Shown here: piece after piece, positions 27,962 to 55,810 of the stretch
How positions within the stretch are numbered: position 1 is the first letter of the stretch
Layout: the number at the start of each line of letters is the position of its first letter
NCBI GenBank assembly: GCA_052034405.1
Contig: JBPOIO010000001.1
Coordinates: 67 to 64,066 of the forward strand
Direction: 5' to 3'
DNA: 64,000 nt
Origin: Candidatus Magasanikiibacteriota bacterium
GTDB lineage: Bacteria; Patescibacteriota; Patescibacteriia; Magasanikbacterales; UBA922
The notes under the pieces: generated by a model
Told to the model about the DNA's origin: nothing
The model's database searches: none
Seen by the model: only the letters and a program-made list of their open reading frames with translations
Translations under genes and position numbers: made by a program

Positions 27962-29176
27962 CTAAAGGGTTGAAGAGACAGTACTACTGTTCGTCGATAA
28001 AACATTACTCAAAGTACTTGTTAGGGTATTTGTACTTACTCCTGGTAAAATAATTTGGGCTGGAATTTCTATATTGGTTTTACCACTTCGAAAACTTTGC
28101 AACAATACATTCATAATATGAGGAAAGGCATTTTTTTCTTGTTCACCGTAAAAATAAACAACAGAATAAATGAATTTTGGAGTCTCAAAAAATCCTACTT
28201 GATTATCGCCACGTCTATATCCTGTTACTTGAAAACGATTTTGAAAAGATGAAAAAGCTGTAAAATTTTCTCCTGGCAAGTTACTGGCAAACCAACTTGC
28301 AAAAGACATTCCTTCGTCTTTTGGAAATACTCGAATTTCCATATAGTCTCCACTGTCGGCACTGAGCAAAACATCTTGCAAATCATTGGCTACAGGATCT
28401 ACTCTCCATGAAGATGGATAATAAAAACGATATTGATACGTAGGATTGATATACTCTTTCACCAACCCAGAATCAATAATTTTCTGAGGGGCAATCCCCT
28501 TTGGATTATACAAATTTGCTACTTCTTGACCATCATAATAACCATCTCGATCCGTATCATATACCTCTGGATCACTCAAAAAAATTTCTTCTTCTAAGTT
28601 TGTCAGAGTATCCGCATCTGAATCTTTGGAAGGTGCATAGGAAAGATGAGGAAGGATCAAAGATCCACCACCTCGAACAATTGGAGTTGAACTTGGAGTA
28701 CTACTCACAATTTCAATTGGAGCAGTGCTTGTCACAACAGGAAGTGTCACAATAGGCGAAGCTTGAAATGGCACAACACTTGTAAGCGTAGAAGGAGAAT
28801 TCGTATTTGTATCTTTCGGAGCCAAAACCATAAAATAAACCAGCGCCCCAATTCCCAAAAGGACCAACAAAGCAAGAAGGATAAAAATCATTTTTTTGGA
28901 CCCCGCAGCAGGTTTTTGCAAAGGCTTTTGCAGTGCTGCCTTTGGCGCTTGTACTCCTGGCTTTGGAGTAAGAGATGCACTTGGAGTAACAGCCGCAGCT
29001 TGTGGTGGTTTTGCTGCAAGAACTGGCTTTTTGACAAGAATAGATGCTGCTGTTTTTTCACTTTGATCTGGATAAATAACCGGATCAGAACCAGCATAAA
29101 AAGCACCCGGCATAGTTTCTATGCGAGCAGTAATAACAGGTGGCGGCGTTGTGTTATTTTCTTTTTTTCCAAACAT
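27962..29176 (-). CDS. Membrane-anchored surface protein with Pro-rich N-terminus, single TM, and C-terminal domain carrying a thrombospondin-type-3-like Ca-binding motif (paralog 1 of 3)
   Basis: TM helix MIFILLALLVLLGIGALVYFMVLA. Motif YDTDRDGYYDGQEVANLYNPKGI. Confidence 0.6.
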   Translation of the reverse strand: MFGKKENNTTPPPVITARIETMPGAFYAGSDPVIYPDQSEKTAASILVKKPVLAAKPPQAAAVTPSASLTPKPGVQAPKAALQKPLQKPAAGSKKMIFILLALLVLLGIGALVYFMVLAPKDTNTNSPSTLTSVVPFQASPIVTLPVVTSTAPIEIVSSTPSSTPIVRGGGSLILPHLSYAPSKDSDADTLTNLEEEIFLSDPEVYDTDRDGYYDGQEVANLYNPKGIAPQKIIDSGLVKEYINPTYQYRFYYPSSWRVDPVANDLQDVLLSADSGDYMEIRVFPKDEGMSFASWFASNLPGENFTAFSSFQNRFQVTGYRRGDNQVGFFETPKFIYSVVYFYGEQEKNAFPHIMNVLLQSFRSGKTNIEIPAQIILPGVSTNTLTSTLSNVLSTNSSTVSSTL

Positions 29177-29178
29177 AC

Positions 29179-30093
29179 TTAGAGTTGAATTTGTCCAGGA
29201 ACTTGAAGTGTTGAAGTACTTGTAGATGTTGCTGACAAAACAGAACTTGTGGAAATTGGAGCTACACCAAAAGAAGACGCTGTACTCGTTGAGGAAGTGA
29301 CAATGGTAATCAAAACAGGTACTGTACTTGAAGAAATACTACTCATTTCAGTAAGACGACCCGAACCATTTGGATTATAACCAGATTTTATTTCAGCCCC
29401 ATCTTTATAAGTATCCCCATCTGTATCTGAATTTTTTGGATTTGTATGCCAAATTAAAATTTCTTCGCCATCAGATAAATCATCACTATCCGAATCCCAG
29501 TTATTTGGATCTATTCCCAGTTCTTTTTCTCGATCGTCTTTGAGACCGTCACCATCACTATCGGCTACTTCACCCACAATAATTTCACGATCCACAGCAT
29601 CCGAAGACGTAGGTACAGTATCAAGAGAAGTAGTACTACTCACCGATACAAGATCAGCAGAGTTATTAAGAGCCGGAGCTGTATCAAGTGGAATAATAGC
29701 TGTATCTGCTGGTTTTTTTGTAAACAAAGTATATACAAACCAAGCAGAACCGAGCAAAACACAGGCAATCACCAAAGTCATAATAGTGACCATAATACCA
29801 TGACTCAACTTTGGTTCTTTCAATGTATTTTCAGATCCCATAATAACCGGAGGAGTCTCAATATTATTCATGGGAGGAACATTTATAGGAGCCTTTGGAG
29901 TCAAAATTCCAGCAGTGAGAGCAGAAGATGAAGACGAAACAGGAGGAATAGCCGCCATACTAGCAGGAGCAGGAGCCAAAGGTTCTGCATTCTCTGTTCC
30001 CTCAAAAATATCCGGTGGTTCCCCAAGTGGAAGATTGGAAGGTACAGAAGCTTGTGGAATTGATGGATGATCGTCAAACATACGAAGATACAC
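29179..30093 (-). CDS. Membrane-anchored protein with S/T-rich linker and tandem DxDxDG (TSP3-like) Ca-binding repeats ending GYNPNGSGRL (paralog 2 of 3)
   Basis: DSDGDGLKDDREKELGIDPNNWDSDSDDLSDGEEILIWHTNPKNSDTDGDTYKDGAEIKSGYNPNGSGRL. Confidence 0.6.
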   Translation of the reverse strand: MYLRMFDDHPSIPQASVPSNLPLGEPPDIFEGTENAEPLAPAPASMAAIPPVSSSSSALTAGILTPKAPINVPPMNNIETPPVIMGSENTLKEPKLSHGIMVTIMTLVIACVLLGSAWFVYTLFTKKPADTAIIPLDTAPALNNSADLVSVSSTTSLDTVPTSSDAVDREIIVGEVADSDGDGLKDDREKELGIDPNNWDSDSDDLSDGEEILIWHTNPKNSDTDGDTYKDGAEIKSGYNPNGSGRLTEMSSISSSTVPVLITIVTSSTSTASSFGVAPISTSSVLSATSTSTSTLQVPGQIQL

Positions 30094-30107
30094 TAAAATT
30101 GAAAGAC

Positions 30108-30572
30108 TTATGGTGTTGTTAATTTGCCAGAACCATTTGGATTATAGCCCTTAAAAACTTCATAGCCATCACTATAGCCATCTGCATCACTATCTGCTTT
30201 TTTTGGATCTGTTTTCCAGACATCAAGTTCGTCAGCATCCGAAAGCCCATCACCGTCACTATCAAAATCACGATTACTGAGTCCCAATTCTTTTTCTTTT
30301 TGGTCATCAACCCCATCACGGTCTTTATCATTTGGAAAAGGATCTACAACAACAGTACTACTTACCGTATCAAGAGAGCTTGTACTTGAAACATTTTCTG
30401 TATTTTGAGATGTATTATTTGATCCTGTTTTTGTATTTTTCTTTTGTACAAAAAACACGACAAGTCCAATAAGCAGTAAGACAAAAAACACGACAAGACC
30501 AATAAGCAGCAACTTTTTTCTAGATGAGCCTTCTGGTGAAATAGGAATTTGAGAATAATTTGCTTCTATCAT
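30108..30572 (-). CDS. Membrane-anchored protein with tandem DxDxDG (TSP3-like) repeats ending GYNPNGSGKL (paralog 3 of 3)
   Basis: DKDRDGVDDQKEKELGLSNRDFDSDGDGLSDADELDVWKTDPKKADSDADGYSDGYEVFKGYNPNGSGKL. The TM region carries an in-frame 33-bp tandem duplication. Confidence 0.6.
   Translation of the reverse strand: MIEANYSQIPISPEGSSRKKLLLIGLVVFFVLLLIGLVVFFVQKKNTKTGSNNTSQNTENVSSTSSLDTVSSTVVVDPFPNDKDRDGVDDQKEKELGLSNRDFDSDGDGLSDADELDVWKTDPKKADSDADGYSDGYEVFKGYNPNGSGKLTTP
30451..30516. repeat. 33-bp x2 in-frame tandem duplication inside the TM segment of the 154-aa gene (LLIGLVVFFVL/LLIGLVVFFVQ)
   Basis: aaaaaacacgacaag[t/a]ccaataagcag[t/c]aa appears twice in tandem. Confidence 0.8.
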
Positions 30573-30589
30573 AATATAATTATATCACA

Positions 30590-33500
30590 CTATCGTTCAC
30601 GATTACATGGTTCACCAGGAACACGGCACAAAACGTCAGCAAATGATGTATCAACAGCACCATTTGGAAATTCAGTATTAAAGCCTGCTTCGTGAATTTG
30701 TCTCACTTCATATACACGATTTGCATTTTTTACCAAATTAAATACATGCCAATATTTTGCTATACCAGCATTCGCACTCGCAGTCGCACTACGAAGTGTA
30801 TATACATGTGTTGGCAAGTATAATGAAGATTCAGGGATTTGATCAGCTCTGTATTCATATATTTCTACCGTAACATCCAAATTATCAAAGGCAGAAATTG
30901 GTACGGTACTACTTCCACTAATAACTTCTACAAAGACTGCGTATGGAGAATTGTAATAACCATGATCCAATAAGCCCATACTATCCCCTGTTATAATTGT
31001 AGAAGCTTGTGCAGAAACACTCTGTAATGTTCCAGAATCATGCACAAATACAGATCCCTGAGTAATAAGATCTTGAGGGTTTCCATAAAAATCTTCACAA
31101 GCATCAGGTTGCCAATAATTAAAGATATTCAATCGTGCAAGATCCGCAATTTCAGCATTATTTAAACCATTATATACAGAAGTCATTCGAGAACAAAGAA
31201 AATTACGTCCACGATTTGCTCTATTACTCGAAAGAGCTTTCAATACATCAACACTCGCTGCAAAACGTTGTTCGGTTGTAGCATTAGCCCGCGCAGCATT
31301 TCCCAAAAAGTCGCGGTTATAAATCACAGGCGCAAAACTTACATCTGGTCCATCGGCGAAATGTTTCCATTTTACTACGACACGAAAAGTTCCCTGTGGT
31401 ACAGCTGGAGAAAGAACGAATTCATTGGCAATAGTTGTAAGTTCTGCATTTACAGGATATGGAAAAAATGATCCATACCGTTCATATTGCTCTTTAGCCC
31501 CAGCAACAGATAATTTTGTACTGATACTTGCATCGCTGCGATTTCCATTGAATTTGTCTGCTGTTACATCATCAAGATTAAAATAGGTTGCATATTGATC
31601 ACTACAGAGCAAATTTGTCTCAAGTCCACGAGCAATCGTTACTTTATTGGCACTCCAAGGACCAGCCTGCCGAGCAGAAGTTTTGTATCCATAATCACGA
31701 GCAAATGGAAAATTATGAATATTTGAAAGTAACCAAAATGATTGATTATAATCGGTTGTATTTACCCCCATTTCATAATTATGCCAACGAGTAGCAGCCG
31801 GCGCACTTGGATCTTCTTGAATAAAAACATTTTCGTTCTTCCAAGCCTCACTTCCACCGAGCGCTAATACTCCAGAAGCTGATGTTTTACTATTCACACG
31901 AAGCAAATAACGAGAAACAGAATTTGCCCAAGACGTATTTACATTATTTGCTCCGGGATTATTGATATCTTGTGGAGTCAAAACATTCAAGACAGCAATC
32001 TTTGGAGTAGCTTTTCCTCTATTATCTGAAGTTGTACAACTCACACAATTTGTCACCAAATTTTGACAATTATTTTCACATGTATAGGTTCCCCTATCAG
32101 CACAAATTGCAGGACGGTCGTCATTATTATAGAAAATTCTTAATGCTGTAGTATTTGCATTTGCAGGAGCATTATTTCCACCAGGAATAATTACTTGATT
32201 GGTAACAGGATCAATATCACAAACCTCTGGCTGTGCGACATTATTTATCTTTGAAAGACGAGAATCAATATCAATTTTACCATTTCCACAACTATCCAAA
32301 GGATCTTGAGTAAGTACTTTCTTACAATCACCAGAACAATAAGTGCAAGTTCGGCCATATTCCGACTCACAAGCTTGACCATTACTTGCCCCAGTATCAC
32401 AAACTTCCCCAGCATCTACAACAGCATTTCCGCAAGAACCAGCAACAGCTACCTCAGCGACAACATTGGGACGTAAACCATCACAGTGAATACGAACATC
32501 TTTATTAAGAGATGAATTCAAAATTTGTGCACATTGATCACCTGCGAGTGCTACCCAACCAAGATCCCCTACTACACCAATATTTCTTTTGGCTACAGAT
32601 TGACACTCAAGTCCAAATCCACGACAAATAGCATCCCCCGTAGTATTTATACATTCACTTGTAGTTTGATCATTATACGTAATTTTGACCAAAGTATCAT
32701 CTGTTCCAGGAGCGTTTCGATCAAAATGTGAAGTTGGATCTGTATGATCAATTGAAATTTGAGCTTGAGGAATTTGCTGAGCACAAGCAATATTCTCTAC
32801 TTGACAGAATTTACTGCAACCATCAAGACGATTGGTATTCCCATCATCACAAGTTTCATCAGAAATTTGAAGAATAGAATCTCCACAATAACCTCCACGA
32901 GCTTGACAATCCAAAGAACAAGATAATTGTTGTGTAATATAATAAGTTGGGTCATTAACAGAAACACAAGTATCACCAACATTTGGACAAGAAAAATTTG
33001 GACCAATACATATTGTACCGGATTTTTTACAATAACCAAAATTTACAAACGCAGGGTCAGCTTTATCACAATTTTCCAAAGAAGCTTCATTCGGATCTTT
33101 TACCCCATTATGGTTTTGGTCGTTAAAATTTATAATGGCATCACCACAAAATCCAGCATTGATATGAGCCGCATCATTTTGTGGTCCTGGAGGAGTACAA
33201 GCCAAAGAACAATGACCGTAACTACCATTGAGATTTCCGTCGTCACAAGTTTCACCCGCATCAATATGTCCATTTCCACAATTTGCATTGGCTCGACAAA
33301 CAGGAGCATCATACTGACAAGCGGCATTACAAGTATGATACGCTGTTTCACCCTGTCCACAAACAAGACCTGCTGCCCCACCCGCAACAGATGAAGTTCC
33401 TGGAGGATCACAAGCTTCACCAATATCTCGAATACCATTTCCACAGTTTCCAGCTACAGGTCGCAAAACTTCGAGACCTTGTTCACCACAAGAAGAGAGT

Positions 33501-36500
33501 GAAGTACTATAATGTGTTGTAGAAACCATTCCTTGGATAATACCTCGCTGATTAGCATTATTCATGTCAAAATATTCAAGAGGCAAATAGAGAGAATAAT
33601 GATTTGCATCAACTCCTTTATATTCAAGGACACTTGACTGAGCAGGGCAACTAAATGTTGCATCAGTACTATTCCAACAAGTCTGACTATCATCTGGTAA
33701 AATACATTTTGCAGGAGCAGCACCACAATCAGTATCTGTAGAACAAGCAACTTGACGACCGTTTTGTAAAGCTTCACAGTGTCCACAAGCACTCCATTGA
33801 TTCAATTCTGGCTCTGCTACATTACCAACAGCAGTAAGCAAACGTCCCCATGATGGCCAATGAGTATTGGTATAACCTGGGATATACGTACCTGCTGGCA
33901 AAAGTGGATAGGTACCATTTGCACTACGATAATCTTCGATTTTGTTTTCCAAATTCTGGATAGTATTGAGACGACTCCAATCTCTTTGAAATTTGCTTTT
34001 TGCATTTGCACAAATTCCATTTGTTGTTGACGTTGGAGTACCCAAGATCGTACGACACTCAAAATCATTTGTACAAGAGACAGAACTTACAGGAAGACTG
34101 TTAATATTTGCTGGAACATACTGACCAGCATCTCCATTTCCAGAAAGACAACTTTGTCGTTCAGAAATATTGATATTGAATATAAAGTGAGCCATGAATT
34201 TTTCCAAAACCTGTCTTGTATTTGCCTGAGCATCAGAATTTATACCAATCAAATAAATATAATTATGTACTGTTTTATCCTCAAGTTCATTGAGTACATT
34301 AATATAAGTATTATTTCCATCACTTATAGCATCATAACCATCTACAATAATGTCACGATATTTTTCAATTCCAGAAAAACCTTGCTCAATAAACCACTCT
34401 CGAGCTGAAGAACGATTTCCATTGGCAAAAACCTGAATACCAATAACATCATCGTTTTTATCATTGAAGAACAAGAATTTTTTGAGGGTTCCCTCTGGAA
34501 GATTGCTGTTGACAGCAGGTGCAACCCCAAGACACTGCTGTTGTCTAATTTGATTGAACGCGAGAATACCACGACATTCACCAACATTGTGACAAACTTT
34601 TCCATCAACACTACAATGGCCAACACTAGCCGCCAAATTTCCTTGAACCATAGGTCGCAAAAGTGGAAGGTCATCTGTTTTATCTCCAGAATTACCACTA
34701 TCCGCACAATAACCTGTACTAAAATTAAGGCTTACGAGTTTTCCACCCAAATTGATTTTTGGAATAGAAGCTCCATCAAAGATTTTTTTACTAAGATTGA
34801 AATGATCGTTATTGAAATTTCCAGCACCCAAACTTACACCATCTTCATATGGATAAGTAATTTGTGTTGGCCATGGATTTTCACAGAACATAGCAGTAAG
34901 ATTGCTTAGTCCAGCAAAAACACGACCAGTTTCTACATTTGTAGTATCAGCAGTAATAGCTATTTGTGCAGAAGCGACAATTGTACCTTCAAGATCTTTT
35001 GATGAAATTCTAATTCTATCAGTATTTACAATAGCAGGAAAAGTAAACAGACTATTATTACGAGGTTCCCAAGACCACTGCCAAGCATAACTTGGAGTAC
35101 TCACAATAAGAGCCCCCGTAGTACTTTTTACAGAAGCCACGAAGTCATGATTTGTATTGGGACGAGTAAATAAGTAACTTGAAGGATCAATATCAACGTC
35201 CTGAACTCGACAGATTTGACTTCCTGTTTCAAAAACAAAGATATCATCTGTGTGGAAACGATTGTTGTTATTCAAAAATACATTTCCTTGAATACCCACA
35301 CCATTTATATCTCGAATACCGCTATTTCCTCCACGAAGTACCACTGCATAAATAGTATTTGCTTCAAGAAGATCATTGACAGTAATATTCATACGAGTAG
35401 TCGTCGGAGCTCCTACATGTTCTAGTGGAATCACATCGATTTTTGGTACAATTTTCCCAGTACACCACACAGTACCTTTATTCGAAATCATATTCACCAA
35501 GTGAACTCCTACCTCAGCATGAACAACAGAGTTGAATACATCCACAAAAAATTGTTTTACATCACTCCAAATTCGAGCAAAAAGACCTGGTACTTGCTCA
35601 CCTCCAGAAAGAGCCAACAATGATCCAATTTCAGAAGTAACTTCTGTTTCATTAGCACTCGCACAGACATAACCTGCAGGATGTAAACTTGCAACAAGCA
35701 CAGAATTTGAAATTGTTTTTTCATCAATTTCACGATTAAATTCTGCAGCAATAAGAGAATTACGACAAACTTTATTGGCCTCCACAACTTCTCCAATACC
35801 AGTACCATTCAAAGGAAGTTCGCTTGTTCGAGTAGGACGAGCTTGACAACAAGAATTTGTACCTACACCCTGATTAGCATCAGGACAGTTATTGCTACGA
35901 GCAACACCATTTTCTACAATCGGAGTAGGATATTCCACATAACCACACTGAAGTGAATAGTCACCTTTTCCAATAATATTTCTCGCACGAAGAGATTCTG
36001 TTGTGGTTGCATTTTTTCGAACTTGAGTTGCTTGGACTTGAACCTTTGCTTCTTGCATCAAAGTAAGAGGATTTACCAAACCTTGACCAATAGCTGTAAC
36101 CACCTGAATAGGATCTTGATCAAATCCAGGATCAGCTACCAGATTAGCAGGTTCACAACGTGGATTTTCACCAAGTTCAGGAAGACCATTTCCACAAAGA
36201 GATGGAGTATCATAAAGTCCGGAAGAACCATGTTTTGTACAGTCACTATTACAACCAGCTGTTCCTGATTCACAACTGAAGTCACTTGAAATATTTGCTT
36301 TTATATCACAGATATTTTGTAAAACACAGCGATTTGTACAAGTAGTAGAAGCAGATGCTACCTCAATAAGGTCAATATTACCATTTGGAAGAACAACTTT
36401 TATGTGACGAGGCTCTGTTGTTTTTTCACATTCTTCACCTGGATCCAAATTTCCATCTCCACAAATAGTTGCAGAATTAAGACATTCAGAGGATTGTTTT

Positions 36501-39500
36501 TGATCACGAGTCAAATTGCTATGATTAGCAGGACAATTTGCTGCTTCACAAAGTGGTGCTTCACAATAAGCACGTGCCATTTTGGTACCAAGATGCAAAC
36601 AATTTTCTGAACAACCAAGAGCCGACCAAGAAGGATGTGCCCCAGCTTCTGCAAGTGAAATACCCAAATCACAATCTTCTCCCAAAAGGGCCAGTCCCCC
36701 ATCAGCAAGTCCAACTTTTCCATTTCCACATTGAAGTGAACCTACAGCATCTGAAAATTTTTGACTACTTCCCTTCCAAGTACAAGTATTTGTACAATAA
36801 TCTTTTTCTCCAGGAATACCAGGATCACATTCTTCACCAAAATTTGGTTCAAGAACTGCATTTCCACACAAACCAAGAACTGATTGATCTGTTGATGTTG
36901 TAAAATGTATATTTCCAGGACGCAAACAATTCAAAGTACAACTTACACCTGGAATTTCTCCAAGAGTTGCAACATCACAATCTTCCCCAGGATCAACTTG
37001 GGAATTCCCACAAAGATATGCTATTTGACCAAAAGGAATATCACTTCCAGCAGGAAGACAATTTCCACTACAATAAGCATAAGGACTTCCTTTGGTAGAA
37101 AAACCAGTTGTTGTTGCTACTTGCTGAGCTTCATTAACAGGAAGATCATCGGCACCTAATACAGTCCAATTCCAACCATAAGCCCAAGGATTCAAGCGCT
37201 GCCCAAGAGGACTACATTGATCTGGAGCACTCAGTGGTGATGCACCATACGCAGTTTTTTGACCAACAAGACTTGCTACAAAAGGACTTGGAACGACATC
37301 TACTTTATCCAAAATACAAATACCATCTTTTTCTTTTGTACGGAATTTCCAAACTTTTGGAGCAACTGCTTTTCCATCAATAGCTTGACCTCCAAGAGTA
37401 CCACCAAAAGCAATAACTTGATCGGTTAATGTAACTTGATACAAAGTATTCACATCCAAAGTTCCATCGACTGTAATTTCATATTGAAAAGGATCAAAGG
37501 CAGCAGCATTCACATCATGAAACGCCAAAGGTGCTTCTGGATTTTGACAATTTTCACCTATATCAAGTGGACCTGCACATTTTTGTACTTTCAAAGCACC
37601 ATGATAGGTATTGGTTTTCATTGGGAGATTGAATCTCACACCAATATTTACATTAGTACAAGACTGGTTACACTGTGGCCACCATTGTACTGCTTTTGGA
37701 TCACCAGGTTGTATAAACAAATTACTACTTCCTGTTACAACTTTATGAACACCATCAACTACAGTATCAGCAGAAGCAGTAATTACAACAGGGTCATTAG
37801 CAGTATTTTTGAGAGCAGTAACCGTAGCACGAATACTATCTGCATACAAAGAACTTGTTGTTGGAACATCTTTTTTGTCAGAACGAACAGCATATGCCAT
37901 ATCAGATAAGAGATCTTCTTCATTACCCTGTCTTGGTTTCCATTCAAAACCTTTTCCATTTACATCAACAACACTACAAGCTTGGCTTCCTCTTCCCCAA
38001 ACAAAGTAGTAAAAAGGATGTGCTGGAGCATCAAAATTGTCTGACAAAGGAAATGCTGGATTCTGAACCATTCCCAAAAGATGCGTTGTGTATTCTGGTG
38101 GGGTAATAGCCGCACCAAAAAGTGAACATGCTGCATTACTTGTTTTGAAATCAAAATTATAAGCAGCAGTAATTCCATTTACTGGAGCTGGCAAAGTTCT
38201 CTGCAAAGATAAAGGCGATGTATTTATTTTATTATTTCCAAATTCAACAAGACCTGGTTCATTGGCATGAAGTGTATTTCCCAAAATAACACGATGCCAA
38301 GTACCTGCTCTATGAGATGCTCCAGGAGCAAGTCTCAATTCCAAAATATCTGTTTGATTTCCTCCCAAAAATCCTACACTATATTGTCCTGTTACATCAT
38401 CAGCAGGAAGATATTTACAATCAGGTTTATCACCTTGTCCACAGGTATACACACGTACCGCAGAGTTCAAATTTACTTCAGACATGTGCATATTAAATTG
38501 CACCGTGATAATACTGTCAGTACAAGCATCCCCTACTCCCCAATTTTGCCAAGGTGAAGGTGAAGGACGAACAAAATTATCGATATTCAAATCTTGCCAG
38601 TCTGCAATATTACAAGCTTCAAGAACACGAGGAACATGTGGAATAAGCCCTGTGGTAAAACGCCAAACATAACCAGCCGAACGAGTTTCGCCCACACAAG
38701 CAAAAGCCTGAGGTTTCCACAAACCTTTTTCAGGACCATTTGTACAACATTGATAACCTACTCCAGGGGCATCTCCACCCAAAGTACAATCTGCAACATT
38801 ATATTGAACACTATTACTAAACTCATTTCCAGCACGAGCAAGAATTGGACCCGTAATCATAGAAACACCGGTGTTGTCAACAGGAAGCACGGTTTCAATG
38901 GTTGTTCCATCATTGGAGACACGACGGATGACATTATTGCCAAGCGGATCTTTATTATTTGAAGAAGTAAGCCAACGAGAATTTATACTCCAAAAATATA
39001 ACTCTGGATTTTGTGTCAAATTAATACCGGTAAGAATCAAAGGTGAAGCATTATTTGGAAGAGGTGCTACTCCAATATTTGGATTGATACGACAAAGCCC
39101 AGGAAGTGGATTTCCAGGAAGAAAAGTAATATTACTTGTTCCATCAGAATGATGATTAGAATCGTTTTTTACAACAACATAATACTTTCCAAGTTGGATT
39201 CCAGATGGAATTTTTCCAATAATTTGATTATCACTCCAAGTATCTCCACAGGCTTCTGGCAAAGTTGCCAAATCAAGACGTGCACAAGCAGCTTCAACAG
39301 CAGCATCTGATGTTCTTGCACAATTGAGTGCCGCATCTGCACTTGCTGCTATATATACCACTCCATGTCCACCAAAACGAGCACCGCTAATGGTAAGCAA
39401 ACTTCCAAGAGTAGAGGTCTGCGAAGGAGAAAGTGCATCAATATGTGGGACAAGATCAGCATCTCTATCAACAACAATAAATTCAACACCATTGGTAAAA

Positions 39501-41521
39501 GAATCGCCAATTTTTGCACGAACGCCCACACGTCCTGGAGACATGTTTTGAGGAACAGAACTCAAAATAGTTGCTTCATTCCATTGACGGATCGGAGCAT
39601 TGACTCCACCAAAAAGAAGCGCACTATTATTGCCACCATTTCCAAGTCCACGACCAAAGGCAGTCACTGGAGCACTTGATGATGCAATATTGGTATTTGT
39701 TGGACCAAGAACAGCACAAAGTCCAGGATGATCGTTATTACTCATTTTGAAAATACCAGCATTTGGACCAGCTTTTGGACCATGATCATCGTTACTCAAA
39801 TCTTCGTAAGCTGGTTTATCCCCTGCTGCACGAGTTTTGATACGAATTGTAGTACTTGTACCAACAGGAAGGTTTGGAATTTCTACAATCACCATGTTGT
39901 CATGCCATACATCAAGTCCATTACAAGAAGCAAATGGAGCAGGAACCCACTGATCAATACTACCATCAGCATTATTATCAATACCAAAATCTACAGAACC
40001 AGAATCTTCACCAAAAAAATTACCCAAAATAGTTGCCCAACTTCCGGGAGCACCATCCCAAGAACTTGGACTTGCACCACCGACATCAACATCCCGAATA
40101 ATAGGTCGATTCACACAAGAACCATTTTGACAATCACCACTTACACACTGCCAATTGGCATTACAAGCTCCATCACCAAGACATTTTCCACCAATATCAA
40201 TAGCTGTTTCGCCAGCATCCTGACGACCATTGTGACAAAGATCTCCATCAAGTACAAAACTTGAAGTTGCGACGGTAATATTGTGATCAATATCTGCAAC
40301 AGTGAAAGTCAAATTATACAAAGCAGGAACCGAAGCATCGGAAGCAAAAACAAGATCTTGATTCAAAGAAAAAGCTTCGTTTGAACCGCTACGAGGGCCA
40401 GAATAATATGACCAATTTACTTTTTCTCCAGCAGGATCTCTTGGTTCACTTTGAACATTCAAAGCAAGATAAGAAATACCTCCAAAAGAAATATTTTGAC
40501 CATCTTCTTTACGGCGATCTTCAAATGTTGCATTGAGATGATATTTTGCATTTCGAGGAACAATCTGCCCTTCTCTTGTATTTTTTCCATTAAAGGTAAT
40601 AGAATCAGTAATTGGAGAAAGAAGATCCAAGAAATCTCGGTTTACATTAAAAAGTGATGTTGTATCAAAAATTCCACAAGCCAATTTTGTTTGGAGTTTG
40701 AGTCCCCCGGCAACAAGATCAGGATTCACTTCAACTTTATATTCTCCAGGAGAAAGACAACTACGAGTGTCACCATCAGCATTACAAAGATTTGTGTCCT
40801 CACCAAAAAAGGCTTCTACGACCTGTCTACCAGGAAGTATTTTTATTGATTTTACAGGAATAGTATTGCTTCCTTTTGAAAGTTTGAAAATTTTATTTTT
40901 ATCTTGATTTTCATCAAGTGGACGACTAAACACAGCACGAACGATGGTATTACTCATACCTGTACCACTATTTGTTGGTGTTCGAGGAGTCAAACTTTTG
41001 ACCACAAAGGCATCGTCACCACACTCACGAGGACCCCCCGCTACTGCCTGACAGTCGGCAAAGTTGGCACAAGCAGGAACTCCTCCACGAACTCCCCCAC
41101 CATCATTAACAAGTCCCCCACTTCCCGTTGCCATGGCTAAACGTGAAATAATAAACTGTGTAATAGCAAAAGAAGACATGATAATAGCAAGTCCAATAGT
41201 AGCGTTAATCAATGTTTTTTTTGCACTCGCAATTTTTTCTTCGTTTCCACCACTCGTCATCCAGGTAAAACCAGCATACAAAATCAAAGCAACAGCAATA
41301 ATTCCCAAAAGACTAAGCGCAATACGAATAATCTTGGCAGCAATAACACGAATATCTTCACCACCAAGCGGAAGAAGACTTCCTACCTTTTGAAGTCCAA
41401 AAGGTGCATTTCCAGCCTGTGCAGAAACGTGATTAAAAGCAAGGAAAATACCACCCAAAAAGAAAACAGAAAAAAGAAAAAGAAAATATTTGCGTTTAAA
41501 TAAAGTGCCAACAAAATGCAT
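30590..41521 (-). CDS. Giant (3643 aa) surface protein: signal peptide plus T4SS-pilin-like (VirB2/TrbC-type) two-helix N-terminal domain fused to an extracellular region with many Myxococcus-type Cys-rich repeats
   Basis: Uninterrupted 10.9-kb ORF. N-terminal IRVIAAKIIRIALSLLGIIAVALILYAGFTWMTSGGNEEKIASAKKTLINATIGLAIIMSSFAITQFII has the helix-loop-helix pilin pattern. Repeats include CGNAVLEPNFGEECD, CGDGNLDPGEECE, CGNGHIDAGETCDDGN, CGDSILQISDETCDDGN and CGNAVVDAGEVCD. Confidence 0.85.
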   Translation of the reverse strand: MHFVGTLFKRKYFLFLFSVFFLGGIFLAFNHVSAQAGNAPFGLQKVGSLLPLGGEDIRVIAAKIIRIALSLLGIIAVALILYAGFTWMTSGGNEEKIASAKKTLINATIGLAIIMSSFAITQFIISRLAMATGSGGLVNDGGGVRGGVPACANFADCQAVAGGPRECGDDAFVVKSLTPRTPTNSGTGMSNTIVRAVFSRPLDENQDKNKIFKLSKGSNTIPVKSIKILPGRQVVEAFFGEDTNLCNADGDTRSCLSPGEYKVEVNPDLVAGGLKLQTKLACGIFDTTSLFNVNRDFLDLLSPITDSITFNGKNTREGQIVPRNAKYHLNATFEDRRKEDGQNISFGGISYLALNVQSEPRDPAGEKVNWSYYSGPRSGSNEAFSLNQDLVFASDASVPALYNLTFTVADIDHNITVATSSFVLDGDLCHNGRQDAGETAIDIGGKCLGDGACNANWQCVSGDCQNGSCVNRPIIRDVDVGGASPSSWDGAPGSWATILGNFFGEDSGSVDFGIDNNADGSIDQWVPAPFASCNGLDVWHDNMVIVEIPNLPVGTSTTIRIKTRAAGDKPAYEDLSNDDHGPKAGPNAGIFKMSNNDHPGLCAVLGPTNTNIASSSAPVTAFGRGLGNGGNNSALLFGGVNAPIRQWNEATILSSVPQNMSPGRVGVRAKIGDSFTNGVEFIVVDRDADLVPHIDALSPSQTSTLGSLLTISGARFGGHGVVYIAASADAALNCARTSDAAVEAACARLDLATLPEACGDTWSDNQIIGKIPSGIQLGKYYVVVKNDSNHHSDGTSNITFLPGNPLPGLCRINPNIGVAPLPNNASPLILTGINLTQNPELYFWSINSRWLTSSNNKDPLGNNVIRRVSNDGTTIETVLPVDNTGVSMITGPILARAGNEFSNSVQYNVADCTLGGDAPGVGYQCCTNGPEKGLWKPQAFACVGETRSAGYVWRFTTGLIPHVPRVLEACNIADWQDLNIDNFVRPSPSPWQNWGVGDACTDSIITVQFNMHMSEVNLNSAVRVYTCGQGDKPDCKYLPADDVTGQYSVGFLGGNQTDILELRLAPGASHRAGTWHRVILGNTLHANEPGLVEFGNNKINTSPLSLQRTLPAPVNGITAAYNFDFKTSNAACSLFGAAITPPEYTTHLLGMVQNPAFPLSDNFDAPAHPFYYFVWGRGSQACSVVDVNGKGFEWKPRQGNEEDLLSDMAYAVRSDKKDVPTTSSLYADSIRATVTALKNTANDPVVITASADTVVDGVHKVVTGSSNLFIQPGDPKAVQWWPQCNQSCTNVNIGVRFNLPMKTNTYHGALKVQKCAGPLDIGENCQNPEAPLAFHDVNAAAFDPFQYEITVDGTLDVNTLYQVTLTDQVIAFGGTLGGQAIDGKAVAPKVWKFRTKEKDGICILDKVDVVPSPFVASLVGQKTAYGASPLSAPDQCSPLGQRLNPWAYGWNWTVLGADDLPVNEAQQVATTTGFSTKGSPYAYCSGNCLPAGSDIPFGQIAYLCGNSQVDPGEDCDVATLGEIPGVSCTLNCLRPGNIHFTTSTDQSVLGLCGNAVLEPNFGEECDPGIPGEKDYCTNTCTWKGSSQKFSDAVGSLQCGNGKVGLADGGLALLGEDCDLGISLAEAGAHPSWSALGCSENCLHLGTKMARAYCEAPLCEAANCPANHSNLTRDQKQSSECLNSATICGDGNLDPGEECEKTTEPRHIKVVLPNGNIDLIEVASASTTCTNRCVLQNICDIKANISSDFSCESGTAGCNSDCTKHGSSGLYDTPSLCGNGLPELGENPRCEPANLVADPGFDQDPIQVVTAIGQGLVNPLTLMQEAKVQVQATQVRKNATTTESLRARNIIGKGDYSLQCGYVEYPTPIVENGVARSNNCPDANQGVGTNSCCQARPTRTSELPLNGTGIGEVVEANKVCRNSLIAAEFNREIDEKTISNSVLVASLHPAGYVCASANETEVTSEIGSLLALSGGEQVPGLFARIWSDVKQFFVDVFNSVVHAEVGVHLVNMISNKGTVWCTGKIVPKIDVIPLEHVGAPTTTRMNITVNDLLEANTIYAVVLRGGNSGIRDINGVGIQGNVFLNNNNRFHTDDIFVFETGSQICRVQDVDIDPSSYLFTRPNTNHDFVASVKSTTGALIVSTPSYAWQWSWEPRNNSLFTFPAIVNTDRIRISSKDLEGTIVASAQIAITADTTNVETGRVFAGLSNLTAMFCENPWPTQITYPYEDGVSLGAGNFNNDHFNLSKKIFDGASIPKINLGGKLVSLNFSTGYCADSGNSGDKTDDLPLLRPMVQGNLAASVGHCSVDGKVCHNVGECRGILAFNQIRQQQCLGVAPAVNSNLPEGTLKKFLFFNDKNDDVIGIQVFANGNRSSAREWFIEQGFSGIEKYRDIIVDGYDAISDGNNTYINVLNELEDKTVHNYIYLIGINSDAQANTRQVLEKFMAHFIFNINISERQSCLSGNGDAGQYVPANINSLPVSSVSCTNDFECRTILGTPTSTTNGICANAKSKFQRDWSRLNTIQNLENKIEDYRSANGTYPLLPAGTYIPGYTNTHWPSWGRLLTAVGNVAEPELNQWSACGHCEALQNGRQVACSTDTDCGAAPAKCILPDDSQTCWNSTDATFSCPAQSSVLEYKGVDANHYSLYLPLEYFDMNNANQRGIIQGMVSTTHYSTSLSSCGEQGLEVLRPVAGNCGNGIRDIGEACDPPGTSSVAGGAAGLVCGQGETAYHTCNAACQYDAPVCRANANCGNGHIDAGETCDDGNLNGSYGHCSLACTPPGPQNDAAHINAGFCGDAIINFNDQNHNGVKDPNEASLENCDKADPAFVNFGYCKKSGTICIGPNFSCPNVGDTCVSVNDPTYYITQQLSCSLDCQARGGYCGDSILQISDETCDDGNTNRLDGCSKFCQVENIACAQQIPQAQISIDHTDPTSHFDRNAPGTDDTLVKITYNDQTTSECINTTGDAICRGFGLECQSVAKRNIGVVGDLGWVALAGDQCAQILNSSLNKDVRIHCDGLRPNVVAEVAVAGSCGNAVVDAGEVCDTGASNGQACESEYGRTCTYCSGDCKKVLTQDPLDSCGNGKIDIDSRLSKINNVAQPEVCDIDPVTNQVIIPGGNNAPANANTTALRIFYNNDDRPAICADRGTYTCENNCQNLVTNCVSCTTSDNRGKATPKIAVLNVLTPQDINNPGANNVNTSWANSVSRYLLRVNSKTSASGVLALGGSEAWKNENVFIQEDPSAPAATRWHNYEMGVNTTDYNQSFWLLSNIHNFPFARDYGYKTSARQAGPWSANKVTIARGLETNLLCSDQYATYFNLDDVTADKFNGNRSDASISTKLSVAGAKEQYERYGSFFPYPVNAELTTIANEFVLSPAVPQGTFRVVVKWKHFADGPDVSFAPVIYNRDFLGNAARANATTEQRFAASVDVLKALSSNRANRGRNFLCSRMTSVYNGLNNAEIADLARLNIFNYWQPDACEDFYGNPQDLITQGSVFVHDSGTLQSVSAQASTIITGDSMGLLDHGYYNSPYAVFVEVISGSSTVPISAFDNLDVTVEIYEYRADQIPESSLYLPTHVYTLRSATASANAGIAKYWHVFNLVKNANRVYEVRQIHEAGFNTEFPNGAVDTSFADVLCRVPGEPCNRER

Positions 41522-41545
41522 ACAAAAAAATTATATACCTCAACT

Positions 41546-43657
41546 CTAGCCACCCGCTTGTACAGGCTGCAAAGGACTAATATCATTACTCTTTAGAGTA
41601 TTGATACAGGTTGATGTACTTGCAGATGTTCGAGGAAGTGCTGGATTTGTATATTGGACACAACCTGTATCTTGGTTGGCAGTGAAATTTTCTGGAAAAT
41701 TCACACATCCAACGTTGGCAACAACATTACCATCACTATCTTCACTATAAGTACAAACAGGAGAATCCGCGCCTTGTGGACGAACAGCTGTCCAAGGACC
41801 ACGACCAGGGTAAAAACAATTTTGTGTAATACTTTTTATACTACTTGGAATAATTGGGAAATAGTAAAAATTAGTTCCCTCTGGGCCAAATTTACGATGA
41901 TCAATTGTTACTATACTTTTATTATCAACAAGAGAAGTATCTGGTCGAAACCAAATATCACCAAGATTCGCAAATGCGGCATTTTGACCTACCAAAGTTG
42001 CTGGAAGTGGATATTCTTCCAAACTTATTTCTTCTAAACTTAAATTGGAAACACGTTTACTAAAATATAATTGAAGTGGTGCCGCCTGAGAAACACTCTC
42101 TGCATCAAGATTTGGTGTAACCTTTTCAAGAGAAGGAGCTGTTCTATCAATAGTATTTGAAATATTAAATCCCCAATAGTAATTGTCTGGATTTTTTTCT
42201 GCATCATGAATAATTTTTGGTTCATTTTGGACAAAACCAGCGCGATGTGGCTCGGCCAATTTTCCATCAGCAACATTGAGAGGACCATTGTCAAGTGCAT
42301 TTCCAGCCATATCCATAAGACCTGAAAAAGGTACGGCTTCAAAAGAGTTTCCTGCCAAAGTCAAAGCAGTACGAACAAGAACTCCATAGGAGTTGGCACA
42401 ATCAGCATTGCCAGCACAGTCAACAGGGAGACAATACATGGTCTGACCACAGCTATTTTGACCACAAGGAATATCAGAGGTAAACTCAAGTGTTTTGTAG
42501 CCATTGGAGATACGCCAATTTCCTGTAATAGTAGCAGAAGCAAAAATAATATTTGAAAAAGGTGAATTTTGACCACTCATTCCTTGGGCAACCAAAGGAT
42601 CAACAGGTTCACTGAAGTTGATTTGAACAAGACTATTTCGAGCCTCTGTAGCATTGGCATCTGGATAAACTGAAGTTACCGAAGGTGGTATTTTATCTTC
42701 AATCGTATCTGTCTGAAAAATCCAAGTATAGTGACCATGTCTATCACTTGAAAAAGCAGAAGTTTTTCCATCTTTTTTCAAGATAGAACGTGTCAAATCA
42801 ACAATATATTTTATTTTTACTTGATCACTACCGAGTGAAACAAGAGGACGAAATATAAATGTTAAAGCTTCACGATTTGGACCTTCAAAAGTAGTGAGCG
42901 CTGCCGCTTCTACAGAAGGAGTCGAAGTACTTCCTTTGATGTTGATTTTTACACTCGAAGTATTGAGCTGATCACAAAATTGTCCACTCCAATCAAATTG
43001 AGCATCATTCACATTGATACAATCTCCGAATATTTGATTATTATTGGTATCTTTAATAAGAGATGCAGGGTCGATTGCTTCACGAAATGTTACCACAATG
43101 CGAGTATTTCGAGGTACATCTTCTTGGTCACGAAGTGGATAATGGTCTTTTACAATACGACCAAGAGCACCGGACGCAGTATAAGAGTCAAAATTGAGTG
43201 CAGCACGCCCACCAGAACCATTGTCACCAAGCCCACTGCCTGTAGCATCGGAGAGAGCATTCAAAATAAACTGAGTAATGGCAAGAGAAGACATGATAAT
43301 AGCAAGACCAATAGTTGCATTGATCAATGTTTTTTTGGCAGTTCCAATCTTTTCTTCGTTTCCTCCACTCGTCATCCAAGTAAAACCTGCGTACAAAATC
43401 AAAACAACAGCAATAAGACCGAGGAGACCAAGACCAATACGAATAATCTTGGCAGCGATAATACGAATATCTTCACCACCTAAAGGAAGAAGACTTCCTA
43501 CTTTTTTTACACCAAAAGTGTCGGCTTGCGCAGAGGCAATCGACGCAAAACAAAAAATAAAAAAAGTGACTAAAAACAAACATGCGATCGTTTTAATCAC
43601 TTTTTTATTATTTCTTTTGTACAAGCGAATCCAAGGAAGCATGGGACCTGGACTCAA
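41546..43657 (-). CDS. 703-aa surface protein: same T4SS-pilin-like N-terminal domain as the upstream giant gene, fused to a different extracellular region with an SbsA/Big-like Ig domain
   Basis: N-terminal ~120 aa about 85% identical to the 3643-aa protein (GFTWMTSGGNEEKIGTAKKTLINATIGLAIIMSSLAITQF). Ig-like signature KIPPSVTSVYPDANATEARNSLVQINFSEPVDP. Confidence 0.8.
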   Translation of the reverse strand: MSPGPMLPWIRLYKRNNKKVIKTIACLFLVTFFIFCFASIASAQADTFGVKKVGSLLPLGGEDIRIIAAKIIRIGLGLLGLIAVVLILYAGFTWMTSGGNEEKIGTAKKTLINATIGLAIIMSSLAITQFILNALSDATGSGLGDNGSGGRAALNFDSYTASGALGRIVKDHYPLRDQEDVPRNTRIVVTFREAIDPASLIKDTNNNQIFGDCINVNDAQFDWSGQFCDQLNTSSVKINIKGSTSTPSVEAAALTTFEGPNREALTFIFRPLVSLGSDQVKIKYIVDLTRSILKKDGKTSAFSSDRHGHYTWIFQTDTIEDKIPPSVTSVYPDANATEARNSLVQINFSEPVDPLVAQGMSGQNSPFSNIIFASATITGNWRISNGYKTLEFTSDIPCGQNSCGQTMYCLPVDCAGNADCANSYGVLVRTALTLAGNSFEAVPFSGLMDMAGNALDNGPLNVADGKLAEPHRAGFVQNEPKIIHDAEKNPDNYYWGFNISNTIDRTAPSLEKVTPNLDAESVSQAAPLQLYFSKRVSNLSLEEISLEEYPLPATLVGQNAAFANLGDIWFRPDTSLVDNKSIVTIDHRKFGPEGTNFYYFPIIPSSIKSITQNCFYPGRGPWTAVRPQGADSPVCTYSEDSDGNVVANVGCVNFPENFTANQDTGCVQYTNPALPRTSASTSTCINTLKSNDISPLQPVQAGG
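43230..43525. repeat. ~300-bp dispersed repeat: 5' coding regions of the two pilin-domain genes (second copy 41130-41425), ~85% nt identity
   Basis: Long runs of identity, e.g. ttcttcgtttcc.ccactcgtcatcca.gtaaaacc and aatacgaataatcttggcagc, seen in both copies. Confidence 0.75.
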
Positions 43658-45925: not shown

Positions 45926-46546
45926 TTAGAAGTTATAGGTTGGAGAATGAAAGAGTGTAATACGATTGAATGGATAACCACGAATCCAAGTACGGCCAAC
46001 AATTGAACTTTTTGGAATAGGACCAAATTTTCGAGAGTCATAACTTTCGCCACGATTGTCCCCCATCACAAAATATTCATCGGGTCCAAGCTGAACCGTA
46101 GTAGAACCAGATGTAGTCTGATTGAGATAATTTTCTTCGACAACTTTTCCTTGAGGAAACTCATCATTGAAAATAATAACTTTGTTGTTTTCAATTTTTA
46201 TTTTTTCTCCAGGAAGACCAATAACACGTTTGAGATAATATTCTTGTTTTATGACCGGCGCCCGTAGCACAACAACCTCACCTCTCTCGGGCGCCCGCAA
46301 ATGGTAACTGAGCTCGTCAATAAGTAAATATTCACTTTCAAAGTAATTTGGCTGCATGGATTGACCTTCAACCACAAAAGGTTTGAAAAGAAAGGTTCTT
46401 ACAGCAATAATAGTAATAGCAGCCAAAACGACAACTTTTATGACCTCCAAAAAAAAGATTCCAACCGACGCAAAAAAACCACGACCTATGGGAGTCATTT
46501 CTTCTAAATTTTCTGAACTCTTTTTTTGTTCAAGGTCTTCATTCAT
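45926..46546 (-). CDS. lepB: Signal peptidase I (S26)
   Basis: GQSMQP (Ser box), KRVIGLPGE (Lys box) and GDNRGESYDSR. Confidence 0.88.
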   Translation of the reverse strand: MNEDLEQKKSSENLEEMTPIGRGFFASVGIFFLEVIKVVVLAAITIIAVRTFLFKPFVVEGQSMQPNYFESEYLLIDELSYHLRAPERGEVVVLRAPVIKQEYYLKRVIGLPGEKIKIENNKVIIFNDEFPQGKVVEENYLNQTTSGSTTVQLGPDEYFVMGDNRGESYDSRKFGPIPKSSIVGRTWIRGYPFNRITLFHSPTYNF

Positions 46547-55513: not shown

Positions 55514-55600
55514 GGAGAGTTGGCTGAGTGGTCGATAGCAGCAGTTTACTAAACTGCAGTCTGCGCAAGTGGACCGGGGGTTCGAATCCCTCACTCTCCG
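55514..55600 (+). tRNA. Type-II (Ser-like D-arm and long variable arm) tRNA with unusual anticodon loop TTACTAA (apparent anticodon ACT)
   Basis: GGAGAGT-T-GGCTGAGTGGTCGATAGC-A-GCAGT-TTACTAA-ACTGC-AGTCTGCGCAAGTGGACC-GGGGGTTCGAATCCCTC-ACTCTCC-G. D-arm nearly identical to the adjacent tRNA-Ser genes. Confidence 0.6.
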
Positions 55601-55619
55601 CGGTACAACTCAAAAATAT

Positions 55620-55709
55620 GGAAGGGTGGCTGAGCGGTTTAAGGCGGCAGTCTTGAAAACTGTTGAGGATGAAAGTCCTCCGCGAGTTCGAATCTCGCCC
55701 CTTCCGCCA
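55620..55709 (+). tRNA. tRNA-Ser (TGA)
   Basis: Anticodon loop CTTGAAA, long variable arm, CCA encoded. Confidence 0.85.
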
Positions 55710-55718
55710 TATTTTAAA

Positions 55719-55806
55719 GGGAGAGGTGTCAGAGCGGTCTATCGTACAGCTTTGCTAAAGCTGCGTGCCCTAACCGGCACCGGGAGTTCGAATCTCCCCC
55801 TCTCCG
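55719..55806 (+). tRNA. tRNA-Ser (GCT)
   Basis: Anticodon loop TTGCTAA and long variable arm. Confidence 0.85.
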
Positions 55807-55810
55807 CAGC

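Follow-up and report, generated by a model that had tools for sequence, protein, structure and literature searches.

A conserved gene pair of Magasanikbacteria and related Patescibacteria joins a T4SS-pilin-family hairpin to large, adhesin-like ectodomains

Findings

In a 64,000-nucleotide (nt) stretch of a Candidatus Magasanikiibacteriota genome (contig JBPOIO010000001.1, positions 67-64,066, forward strand; hereafter the window) we identify two adjacent genes, each of which joins a hairpin of the PF18895 family of type IV secretion system (T4SS) pilins to a large ectodomain predicted to lie on the cell surface. This pair is a variant of the known VirB2-like pilins of Patescibacteria; it is widespread, automatically annotated in the databases and not described in the literature that we searched. 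We tentatively propose that the two genes encode modular VirB2-type minor pilins, which would be built into a filament or a pilin platform. The T4SS pilins of Patescibacteria are known to be abundant and, in the one genetically tractable species, essential (in Southlakia epibionticum, a pilin series within the T4SS cluster; PMC10633639), and a 2025 review calls the T4SSs of this phylum potentially pilus-forming. The pair may show how these ultrasmall Patescibacteria display adhesins.

The two open reading frames (ORFs) are intact, lie in the same direction and are separated by 24 nt. They and the elements of their N-terminal regions, with lengths in amino acids (aa), are as follows:

41546-43657, minus strand: small gene, putative modular pilin; the ORF from the TTG at 43657 codes for 703 aa
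43244-43474, minus strand: VirB2-like pilin hairpin of the small protein, aa 57-133 of its 698-aa form, PF18895 36.7 bits
43178-43243, minus strand: Gly/Ser-rich flexible linker of the small protein, aa 134-155, with predicted local distance difference test (pLDDT) values <50 at aa 137-147
30590-41521, minus strand: giant gene, putative modular pilin, 3,643 aa
41129-41359, minus strand: VirB2-like pilin hairpin of the giant protein, aa 55-131, PF18895 37.2 bits

The likely start of the small gene is the ATG at 43642, which is supported by the starts of its orthologues and yields a protein of 698 aa. This protein comprises a signal peptide, the PF18895 hairpin, the linker, three Big_5-type immunoglobulin (Ig)-like domains and a Cys-rich C-terminal region; the giant comprises a signal peptide, the PF18895 hairpin, a Gly-rich linker and an acidic, Cys-rich ectodomain of about 3,500 aa. 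The N-terminal motif quoted in an earlier reading of this DNA (hereafter the sequence-only reading) is present in the translations of both genes. Hydropathy analysis revealed three hydrophobic segments per protein, namely the signal peptide and the two helices of the hairpin, all within the first ~135 residues, and both proteins have a Sec signal peptide with an AQA-type cleavage site. Neither an LPXTG motif nor a C-terminal hydrophobic segment with a charged tail was detected in either protein by sequence and hydropathy; the C-termini of the two proteins (...VPGEPCNRER and ...PLQPVQAGG) are unlike those of sortase- or PrgB-type anchored proteins. Exact-sequence look-ups of three proteins of the window recovered no database record.

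The hairpin belongs to the PF18895 pilin family

Hidden Markov model searches with the isolated N-termini recovered the PF18895 T4SS_pilin family with 37.2 bits for the giant and 36.7 bits for the small protein, while the full proteins gave 31.3 and 31.9 bits, all above the gathering cut-off of 26.6 bits. Both hairpins are thus members of this family, as the sequence-only reading had supposed in calling the module T4SS-pilin-like. Over 105 aa the N-terminal modules of the two proteins share 79% identity, rising to ~88% in the helical core. The hairpin consists of ~75 residues forming two hydrophobic helices, which are joined by a short charged loop, TSGGNEEK..AKK, with a net positive charge. 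In AlphaFold2 (AF2) models the helices span aa 57-89 and 94-131 of the giant, with a 4-residue turn and pLDDT >90, and aa 59-91 and 96-134 of the small protein.

Further comparisons concern pilins of conjugative systems. NF045849, which describes the Mbov_0395 pilin-like conjugal transfer protein, gave significant though sub-threshold matches to the giant (24.8 bits, E=1e-5) and to the small protein (26.1 bits, E=5e-6). Likewise, a tblastn search against 72,556 plasmids recovered a Pontibacillus gene of the NF045849 family (E=1e-4), which lies 4 kb upstream of a CD1110-family VirB4. An hhalign comparison of the module alignment with seven authentic VirB2/TrbC proteins of Ti-type and related plasmids aligned 57 collinear columns (probability 60%, E=8.5e-5), spanning helix 1, the G-x-x-W-M motif and the start of helix 2; furthermore, precomputed matches to PF04956 (TrbC/VirB2) are present in ~10% of the homologues. 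Homology of the hairpin to classical VirB2 is, on these profile comparisons, likely but not proven.

In the solved conjugative pili both termini lie outside and the charged loop lines the lumen (bioRxiv 10.64898/2025.12.18.695078). By analogy, we infer that the hairpin of the pair is inserted with its N- and C-termini outside and its loop inside, which would place the ectodomains on the cell surface. As both termini of conjugative pilins are external, N- and C-terminal extensions are topologically compatible with display on a filament. In size the two proteins depart from VirB2-type pilins, which are stand-alone proteins of ~70-120 aa when mature: they reach 698 and 3,643 aa, and in both the extension begins past the Gly-rich linker that follows helix 2.

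The fusions are genuine and conserved

Homology searches with the small protein recovered at least 396 sequences. The 120 that were listed are mostly full length (646-804 aa), nearly all contain both PF18895 and PF13205, and they come mainly from Candidatus Magasanikbacteria; their public names include 'hypothetical protein', 'SbsA Ig-like domain-containing protein' and 'pilin' (e.g. UniProt A0A2H0TR26, A0A0G1YGF5). A search with the first 1,500 aa of the giant as query recovered collinear homologues of 880-2,607 aa, with precomputed PF18895 matches in all those listed. An exhaustive profile search yielded at least 15 distinct 50%-identity clusters of proteins of 3,272-4,158 aa with the module at residues ~7-135, and one collinear orthologue of the giant (P0316) has 3,633 aa. 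In a species scan, in which each species was represented by one genome, the small gene was followed in tandem by the giant gene in 53 of the 79 loci obtained. The record titles of the loci bearing the pair name Magasanikbacteria, Uhrbacteria, Falkowbacteria and the 'Parcubacteria group'. Many metagenome-assembled genome records with this cluster are titled 'uncultured Gammaproteobacteria bacterium', and one 'Candidatus Udaeobacter', which are apparently placeholder or wrong labels.

A contig from JGI, L001, is 97.4% identical to the window and retains the giant gene intact at 3,643 aa. Comparison of the giant gene between the two gave a ratio of nonsynonymous to synonymous divergence (pN/pS) of 0.11 over 2,790 codons, and both genes of the pair are under purifying selection. 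Along this gene (33150-41521) pS varies twenty-fold, from 0.01 to 0.20 in blocks of 300 codons, while pN/pS stays low; this uneven synonymous divergence suggests a recombination mosaic.

In L001 the loss of 1 nt from a G run splits the small gene, so that it codes for a 143-aa pilin and a separate protein of 516 aa; this might be taken to mean that the fusions are products of frameshifting, of misassembly or of the spurious calling of a long ORF. However, all the indels between the window and L001 are 1-nt homopolymer deletions in L001, five in number and clustered within 1.2 kb (43208, 43502, 43836, 44151 and 44434); they break yqeY, the small pilin gene and the pilin's own signal peptide, and none occurs across more than 9 kb of the giant gene. 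As yqeY and the signal peptide are disrupted by the same cluster of deletions, it is L001 that is defective, through sequencing error or local decay, rather than the window. We set aside phase variation of the G run, given that the four other homopolymer deletions nearby break unrelated frames. With hundreds of full-length orthologues in independent assemblies, orthologues of the giant, the recurrent tandem pair and a pN/pS of 0.11, an artefactual origin is refuted and of negligible probability: the fusion, as the sequence-only reading had taken it to be, is genuine.

The hairpin is the best-conserved part of the small protein

Within the small-protein family the mean pairwise identity is 60% in the hairpin and 58% in its loop, 44% in the ectodomain and 27% in the linker, and the signature YAGFxWMTSGGNEEK is retained. 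The stand-alone versions of the module that the sequence-only reading had thought worth seeking do exist in the lineage: one genome encodes a stand-alone pilin of 176 aa with 56% identity to the giant's module, which is itself 58% identical to the module of its partner, while the other array pilins of that genome are only 30-40% identical to the giant's module. This high conservation and the 56% identity to a stand-alone pilin favour a module constrained like a pilin, and hence a real assembly module rather than a passive anchor.

The modules of a pair also resemble each other more closely than they do those of other genomes: same-genome pairs have an identity of 0.57, as against 0.45-0.49 for orthologous modules across genomes, and across genomes the identity of small to giant modules equals that of small to small. 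This pattern indicates concerted evolution or co-evolution of the paired modules. Very recent gene conversion does not suffice to explain it: the modules of the window are ~88% identical in protein, yet 26 of the 83 codons for identical residues (31%) differ synonymously, so that selection is needed as well.

The hairpin module occurs in proteins of widely differing size

A profile of the module matched 76,639 cluster representatives at E<=1e-3. Short stand-alone pilins of the kind that the sequence-only reading regarded as the norm (~100 aa) are indeed among them, but in this lineage the family runs from ~100 aa to >4,000 aa and includes arrays, poly-pilins, fusions of ~700 aa and giant fusions. 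The arrays comprise 5-13 successive pilin genes, some members of which have N- or C-terminal extensions of up to ~500 aa. Additionally, gene calls predict single polypeptides with 2-17 tandem modules (P0223, P0219, P0228; e.g. 1,775 aa with 17 modules). Such N- and C-terminal extensions and tandem fusions fit a side-by-side packing of modules whose termini both lie outside. Arrays of this type were seen in L007 (5427-15711), in L008 and in 13 of the 79 loci from GTDB species (e.g. L074, L082, L068); the L007/L008 array is not beside virB4 and has a solute-binding-protein gene embedded in it. Poly-pilins account for many of the top 150 profile matches. A search with a 140-aa module query had found only short pilins, which would make fusions appear rare; this was rejected, as the word-based candidate step skews the sampling, and the profile search and genome scan give many fusions.

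The ectodomains contain Ig-like domains and Cys-rich repeats

Both ectodomains are disulfide-rich and consist mainly of Ig-like domains. That of the small protein has 560 aa and contains three stretches matching Big_5 (PF13205; 53.4 bits, cut-off 23.6). In a confident AF2 model of this protein, built from an alignment of 69 sequences (pLDDT 85, predicted template modelling score 0.75), the hairpin is followed by a linker that is disordered at aa 137-147 and by a series of beta-sandwich domains in which cysteines are conserved. Foldseek searches with the model recovered the Ig folds of protocadherin/cadherin, titin, Ldt-Ig and CopC. The following elements were delineated in the giant:

39482-39703, minus strand: IPT/TIG Ig-like domain, aa 607-680, PF01833 32.4 bits (cut-off 20.9)
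37400-37699, minus strand: Big_5 (SbsA-type) Ig-like domain, aa 1275-1374, PF13205 42.5 bits (cut-off 23.6)
36122-37012, minus strand: first Cys-rich cluster, aa 1504-1800
32222-33445, minus strand: second Cys-rich repeat region, aa 2693-3100, with CGNG..E.CD repeats

The giant has 134 cysteines, which cluster at aa 1500-1800 and aa 2500-3200, and its net charge is -128; the small protein is likewise acidic and Cys-rich outside its N-terminal region. The Myxococcus-type Cys-rich repeat TIGR02232 named in the sequence-only reading was recovered in two stretches of the giant with 36.7 bits (cut-off 20.8), and DUF4215 gave 21.9 bits, under its cut-off of 27. The repeats are therefore present, while the figure of about ten given for them is approximate, with the strict CGN..E.CD pattern, counted by regular expression, giving six copies. 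No enzyme, toxin or defence domain was detected in either protein with Pfam, NCBIfam and PADLOC. The combination of Ig-like domains and Cys-rich repeats bears out the earlier description of the C-terminal regions as extracellular and adhesin-like, and on the whole its interpretation of the pair was largely right.

The pair is part of a conserved operon

Eight loci have visible flanks (the window, L002-L006, L088 and L089) and share a common order: a small pilin-Big_5 gene (~650-900 aa), a pilin-giant gene (1,880-4,088 aa), membrane proteins, ybeY, dgkA, ftsA and ftsZ. In some, one or two extra large secreted proteins are encoded between the giant gene and those for the membrane proteins. The giant gene is followed by genes for one to three single-pass membrane proteins, of which one to three have TSP3 Ca-binding repeats. 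The upstream side, with signal peptidase I, HisRS, a small gene and YqeY, varies between loci. The pair thus belongs to a conserved operon, which in the window has five genes (27962-43657), the remaining three being:

30108-30572, minus strand: single-pass TSP3 membrane protein of 154 aa, PF18884 39.9 bits; first gene past the giant
29179-30093, minus strand: single-pass TSP3 membrane protein of 304 aa with a Pro-rich N-terminus, PF18884 33 bits
27962-29176, minus strand: single-pass membrane protein of 404 aa with a TSP3-like motif and a C-terminal globular domain; last of the cluster, overlapping ybeY

Genes equivalent to the TSP3 genes of the window follow the giant gene in L005, L006, L088 and L089, i.e. 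in all four other loci with a visible downstream flank, and tblastn searches with the 304-aa and 404-aa proteins recovered matches in L005 and L006. Two of the three membrane proteins of the window (27962-30572) have the motif GYNPNGSG(K/R)L after the TSP3 repeats, and the third a weaker version, YNPKG. The products of the TSP3 genes have Pro-rich, presumably cytoplasmic N-termini.

The candidate assembly machinery is encoded by T4SS genes at 57121-60112, 13.5 kb from the small gene:

59678-60112, minus strand: PrgI/VirB3-like protein (Pfam PrgI)
58995-59672, minus strand: TrsD-like VirB4 N-domain protein of 225 aa (TrsD E=1.4e-6)
57121-58989, minus strand: CD1110-family VirB4 ATPase of 622 aa, NF045971 347.8 bits (cut-off 325), with a Pfam TraG P-loop match

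The VirB4 function is split here between the TrsD-like N-terminal protein and the CD1110-family ATPase, with PrgI/VirB3 ahead of them. Three ORFs upstream of these genes (60119-63960) have no family match, and no further pilin module, short pilin or VirB6-like gene was found within the 64-kb window. A signal peptidase I gene (45926-46546) lies a few genes upstream of the pair and is also present in 52 of 86 related loci. The possibility that this conserved S26 peptidase is a TraF-like pilin-maturation protease was rejected: it scores 144 bits with TIGR02227 and 47 bits with TraF (cut-off 100), which marks it as an ordinary LepB-type enzyme. Elsewhere in the window, an ORF of 1,825 aa at 963-6440, for which there is no Pfam match, includes a His-Gly repeat as well as membrane segments by prediction; the G+C content is 53% in the first 2 kb as against about 38% in the remainder; and a cluster of three tRNA-Ser genes lies at 55514-55807, for one of which ARAGORN gives the unusual anticodon ACT.

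Minor pilins, anchored adhesins or released proteins

In the reading that we tentatively favour, the hairpin would be more than an anchor and would act as the assembly unit that the short pilins of these genomes also represent. Short pilins would make up most of a filament or pilin platform, and a T4SS-like machine (PrgI/VirB3, TrsD, VirB4) would insert a few fusion subunits into it or place them at its tip or base. The ectodomains would face outward, because both termini do so in known conjugative pili, and might decorate the outside and act as adhesins for host-cell contact. Pilus display and host attachment are plausible, putative roles of the predicted adhesins.

Several observations weigh against this proposal. 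The link to classical pilins is the first: with PF04956 only the small protein gave a match (17.6 bits, E=0.004), which lies below the cut-off of 27.9; the NF045849 scores fall under the curated cut-off of 40 bits, so that the proteins are related to that family but not equivalogs; hydrophobic composition inflates profile matches between hydrophobic helices; and single-chain fold searches with the hairpin, like the fold comparison with VirB2 or TraA suggested in the sequence-only reading, do not discriminate, as a helical hairpin matches anything. The second is location, for the pair is not encoded within or beside a T4SS cluster. The VirB4 locus noted in the sequence-only reading at 13 kb is indeed there, but it is separated from the pair by nine protein genes with unrelated family matches (yqeY to ComF-like) and tRNA genes, and the linkage is not conserved: homologues of VirB4, TrsD or PrgI were found within 6-10 kb of the pair in none of the 86 related loci. 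Furthermore, a pilus of this type has so far not been seen in Patescibacteria; an appendage of 3,500 aa poses a steric problem for polymerisation, so that at most a sparse or terminal incorporation is conceivable; and oligomerisation within the membrane could also account for how strongly the hairpin is conserved.

A serious rival, to which we give considerable though not prevailing credence, is that the hairpin now serves, by co-option, as a stable two-helix membrane anchor and perhaps as an in-membrane oligomerisation module too, and that the proteins are membrane-held surface fibrils or adhesins outside any T4SS filament, perhaps organised with the TSP3 membrane proteins. The position of the pair among housekeeping and cell-division genes and never beside virB4, the size of the giant, which argues against polymerisation, and the conserved partner membrane proteins, which suggest an envelope-embedded complex, all fit this explanation. 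Moreover, neither protein has another anchoring signal, and the Pam pili offer a precedent for tethering via transmembrane (TM)-helix subunits without a dedicated machine (bioRxiv 10.64898/2026.03.03.709456). However, simple anchors usually drift, whereas in this family conservation is highest in the hairpin and its cytoplasmic loop, the hairpin is 50-56% identical to a specific short pilin, and the YAGFxWMTSGGNEEK signature is kept.

It is improbable that the hairpin is instead an export or handling tag, from which the ectodomain would be cut within the linker or extracted by the VirB4 machine, and then either released as a matrix or S-layer-like protein or deposited on the host. The linker past helix 2 is disordered and poorly conserved, large acidic Cys-rich proteins resemble secreted matrix proteins, and VirB4 is thought to dislocate pilins from the membrane (PMC12857230); but no conserved protease site was identified, and neither protein has a toxin or enzyme domain.

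The minor-pilin reading can be extended to a VirB2-like filament in the monoderm envelope of Magasanikbacteria and their relatives, with pilin-adhesin fusions of up to ~4,000 residues as minor subunits and the five-gene operon encoding the organelle by which these uncultured episymbionts attach to their hosts; in this full form we regard it as doubtful. Were the pair to encode minor pilins, the pilin-plus-adhesin principle of type IV, chaperone-usher and sortase pili would extend to the conjugative class, and, were a filament to be formed, the pair would provide the first examples of modular pilins of the conjugative type. Should the hairpin be no more than an anchor, the pair would still represent a widespread and previously undiscussed mode of surface-protein anchoring in a major uncultured lineage. 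The pair supplies concrete candidate adhesins physically tied to the pilin system, where the main survey of these systems reported none, and the long unique ectodomains are easy targets for proteomics, antibodies and cryo-electron tomography.

Comparison with known systems

A survey of 3,035 Patescibacteria genomes with PF18895 and PF04956 described arrays of 2-11 pilins and reported that no adhesins were detected; term searches of its text gave no mention of pilin fusions (PMC12102498). A preprint on the Gram-positive PrgF pilus proposes that VirB2-like proteins form pili in monoderm T4SSs; the words 'fusion', 'fused' and 'additional domain' do not occur in its text (bioRxiv 10.64898/2025.12.18.695078). 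A structure-universe preprint refers to PF18895 solely for its abundance in freshwater clusters. The literature searched, with subscription journals outside its scope, yielded no account of a VirB2-type pilin joined to a large ectodomain.

The pair is most directly comparable to the pilin arrays of Patescibacteria, with which it shares the family (PF18895), the phylum, the signal peptide and the two-helix hairpin; in addition, the genome has a monoderm-type T4SS (PrgI/VirB3, TrsD, VirB4), and short pilins at least 50% identical to the fused modules occur in the same genomes. The described pilins are, however, small, encoded in arrays of 2-11 genes and often near virB4, whereas here the ectodomains have 560 and 3,500 aa, and the genes form a fixed pair in a different conserved operon without linkage to virB4. 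With VirB2, TrbC and TraA of diderms and PrgF_B2 of the Gram-positive plasmid pCF10 the module shares a small hairpin with two TM helices, a short charged loop, a signal peptide and both termini outside, and with VirB2 of the Agrobacterium type a collinear profile match including the G-x-x-W-M motif. It differs from these canonical pilins in its sub-threshold PF04956 scores and in a loop that is 8 residues longer. To our knowledge, no characterised VirB2-type pilin has a giant C-terminal extension.

The Mbov_0395 family (NF045849), found in Mollicutes and in integrative and conjugative elements of Bacillota, is similar in its significant sub-threshold profile matches, and its Pontibacillus member clusters with a CD1110-family VirB4 such as that of the window. 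Its members differ in being stand-alone proteins of about 80-150 aa that are encoded inside the transfer cluster.

PrgB-type adhesins, like the proteins of the pair, are built with Ig-like domains. Both PrgB/aggregation substance and extended VirB6 proteins tie large surface or hydrophilic domains to T4SS function (PMC12857230). Nevertheless, PrgB is attached to the wall through sortase and has no pilin joined to it, and extended VirB6 proteins are polytopic channel subunits. The Pam pili share with the pair their occurrence as surface filaments in the candidate phyla radiation, Ig-like domains, Sec export and a tether provided by a TM-helix subunit (bioRxiv 10.64898/2026.03.03.709456). They are assembled by donor-strand exchange with chaperones, do not have a VirB2-like hairpin and are found mainly in Saccharimonadia and Microgenomatia, rather than in Magasanikbacteria and relatives.

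The same design of a pilin module combined with an adhesin module is seen in the two-domain tip adhesins of chaperone-usher pili, such as FimH and PapG. The modular type IV pilins PilB and PilC of Streptococcus sanguinis similarly join a pilin module to a bulky adhesin module, with a minor subunit giving binding (PMC8179133, PMC9934059). Modular pilins of both these classes differ from the pair in their unrelated fold and assembly machinery and in adhesin modules far below 3,500 aa. As an analogy of design, the modular type IV pilins (PMC8179133) are the closest conceptual analogue of the pair.

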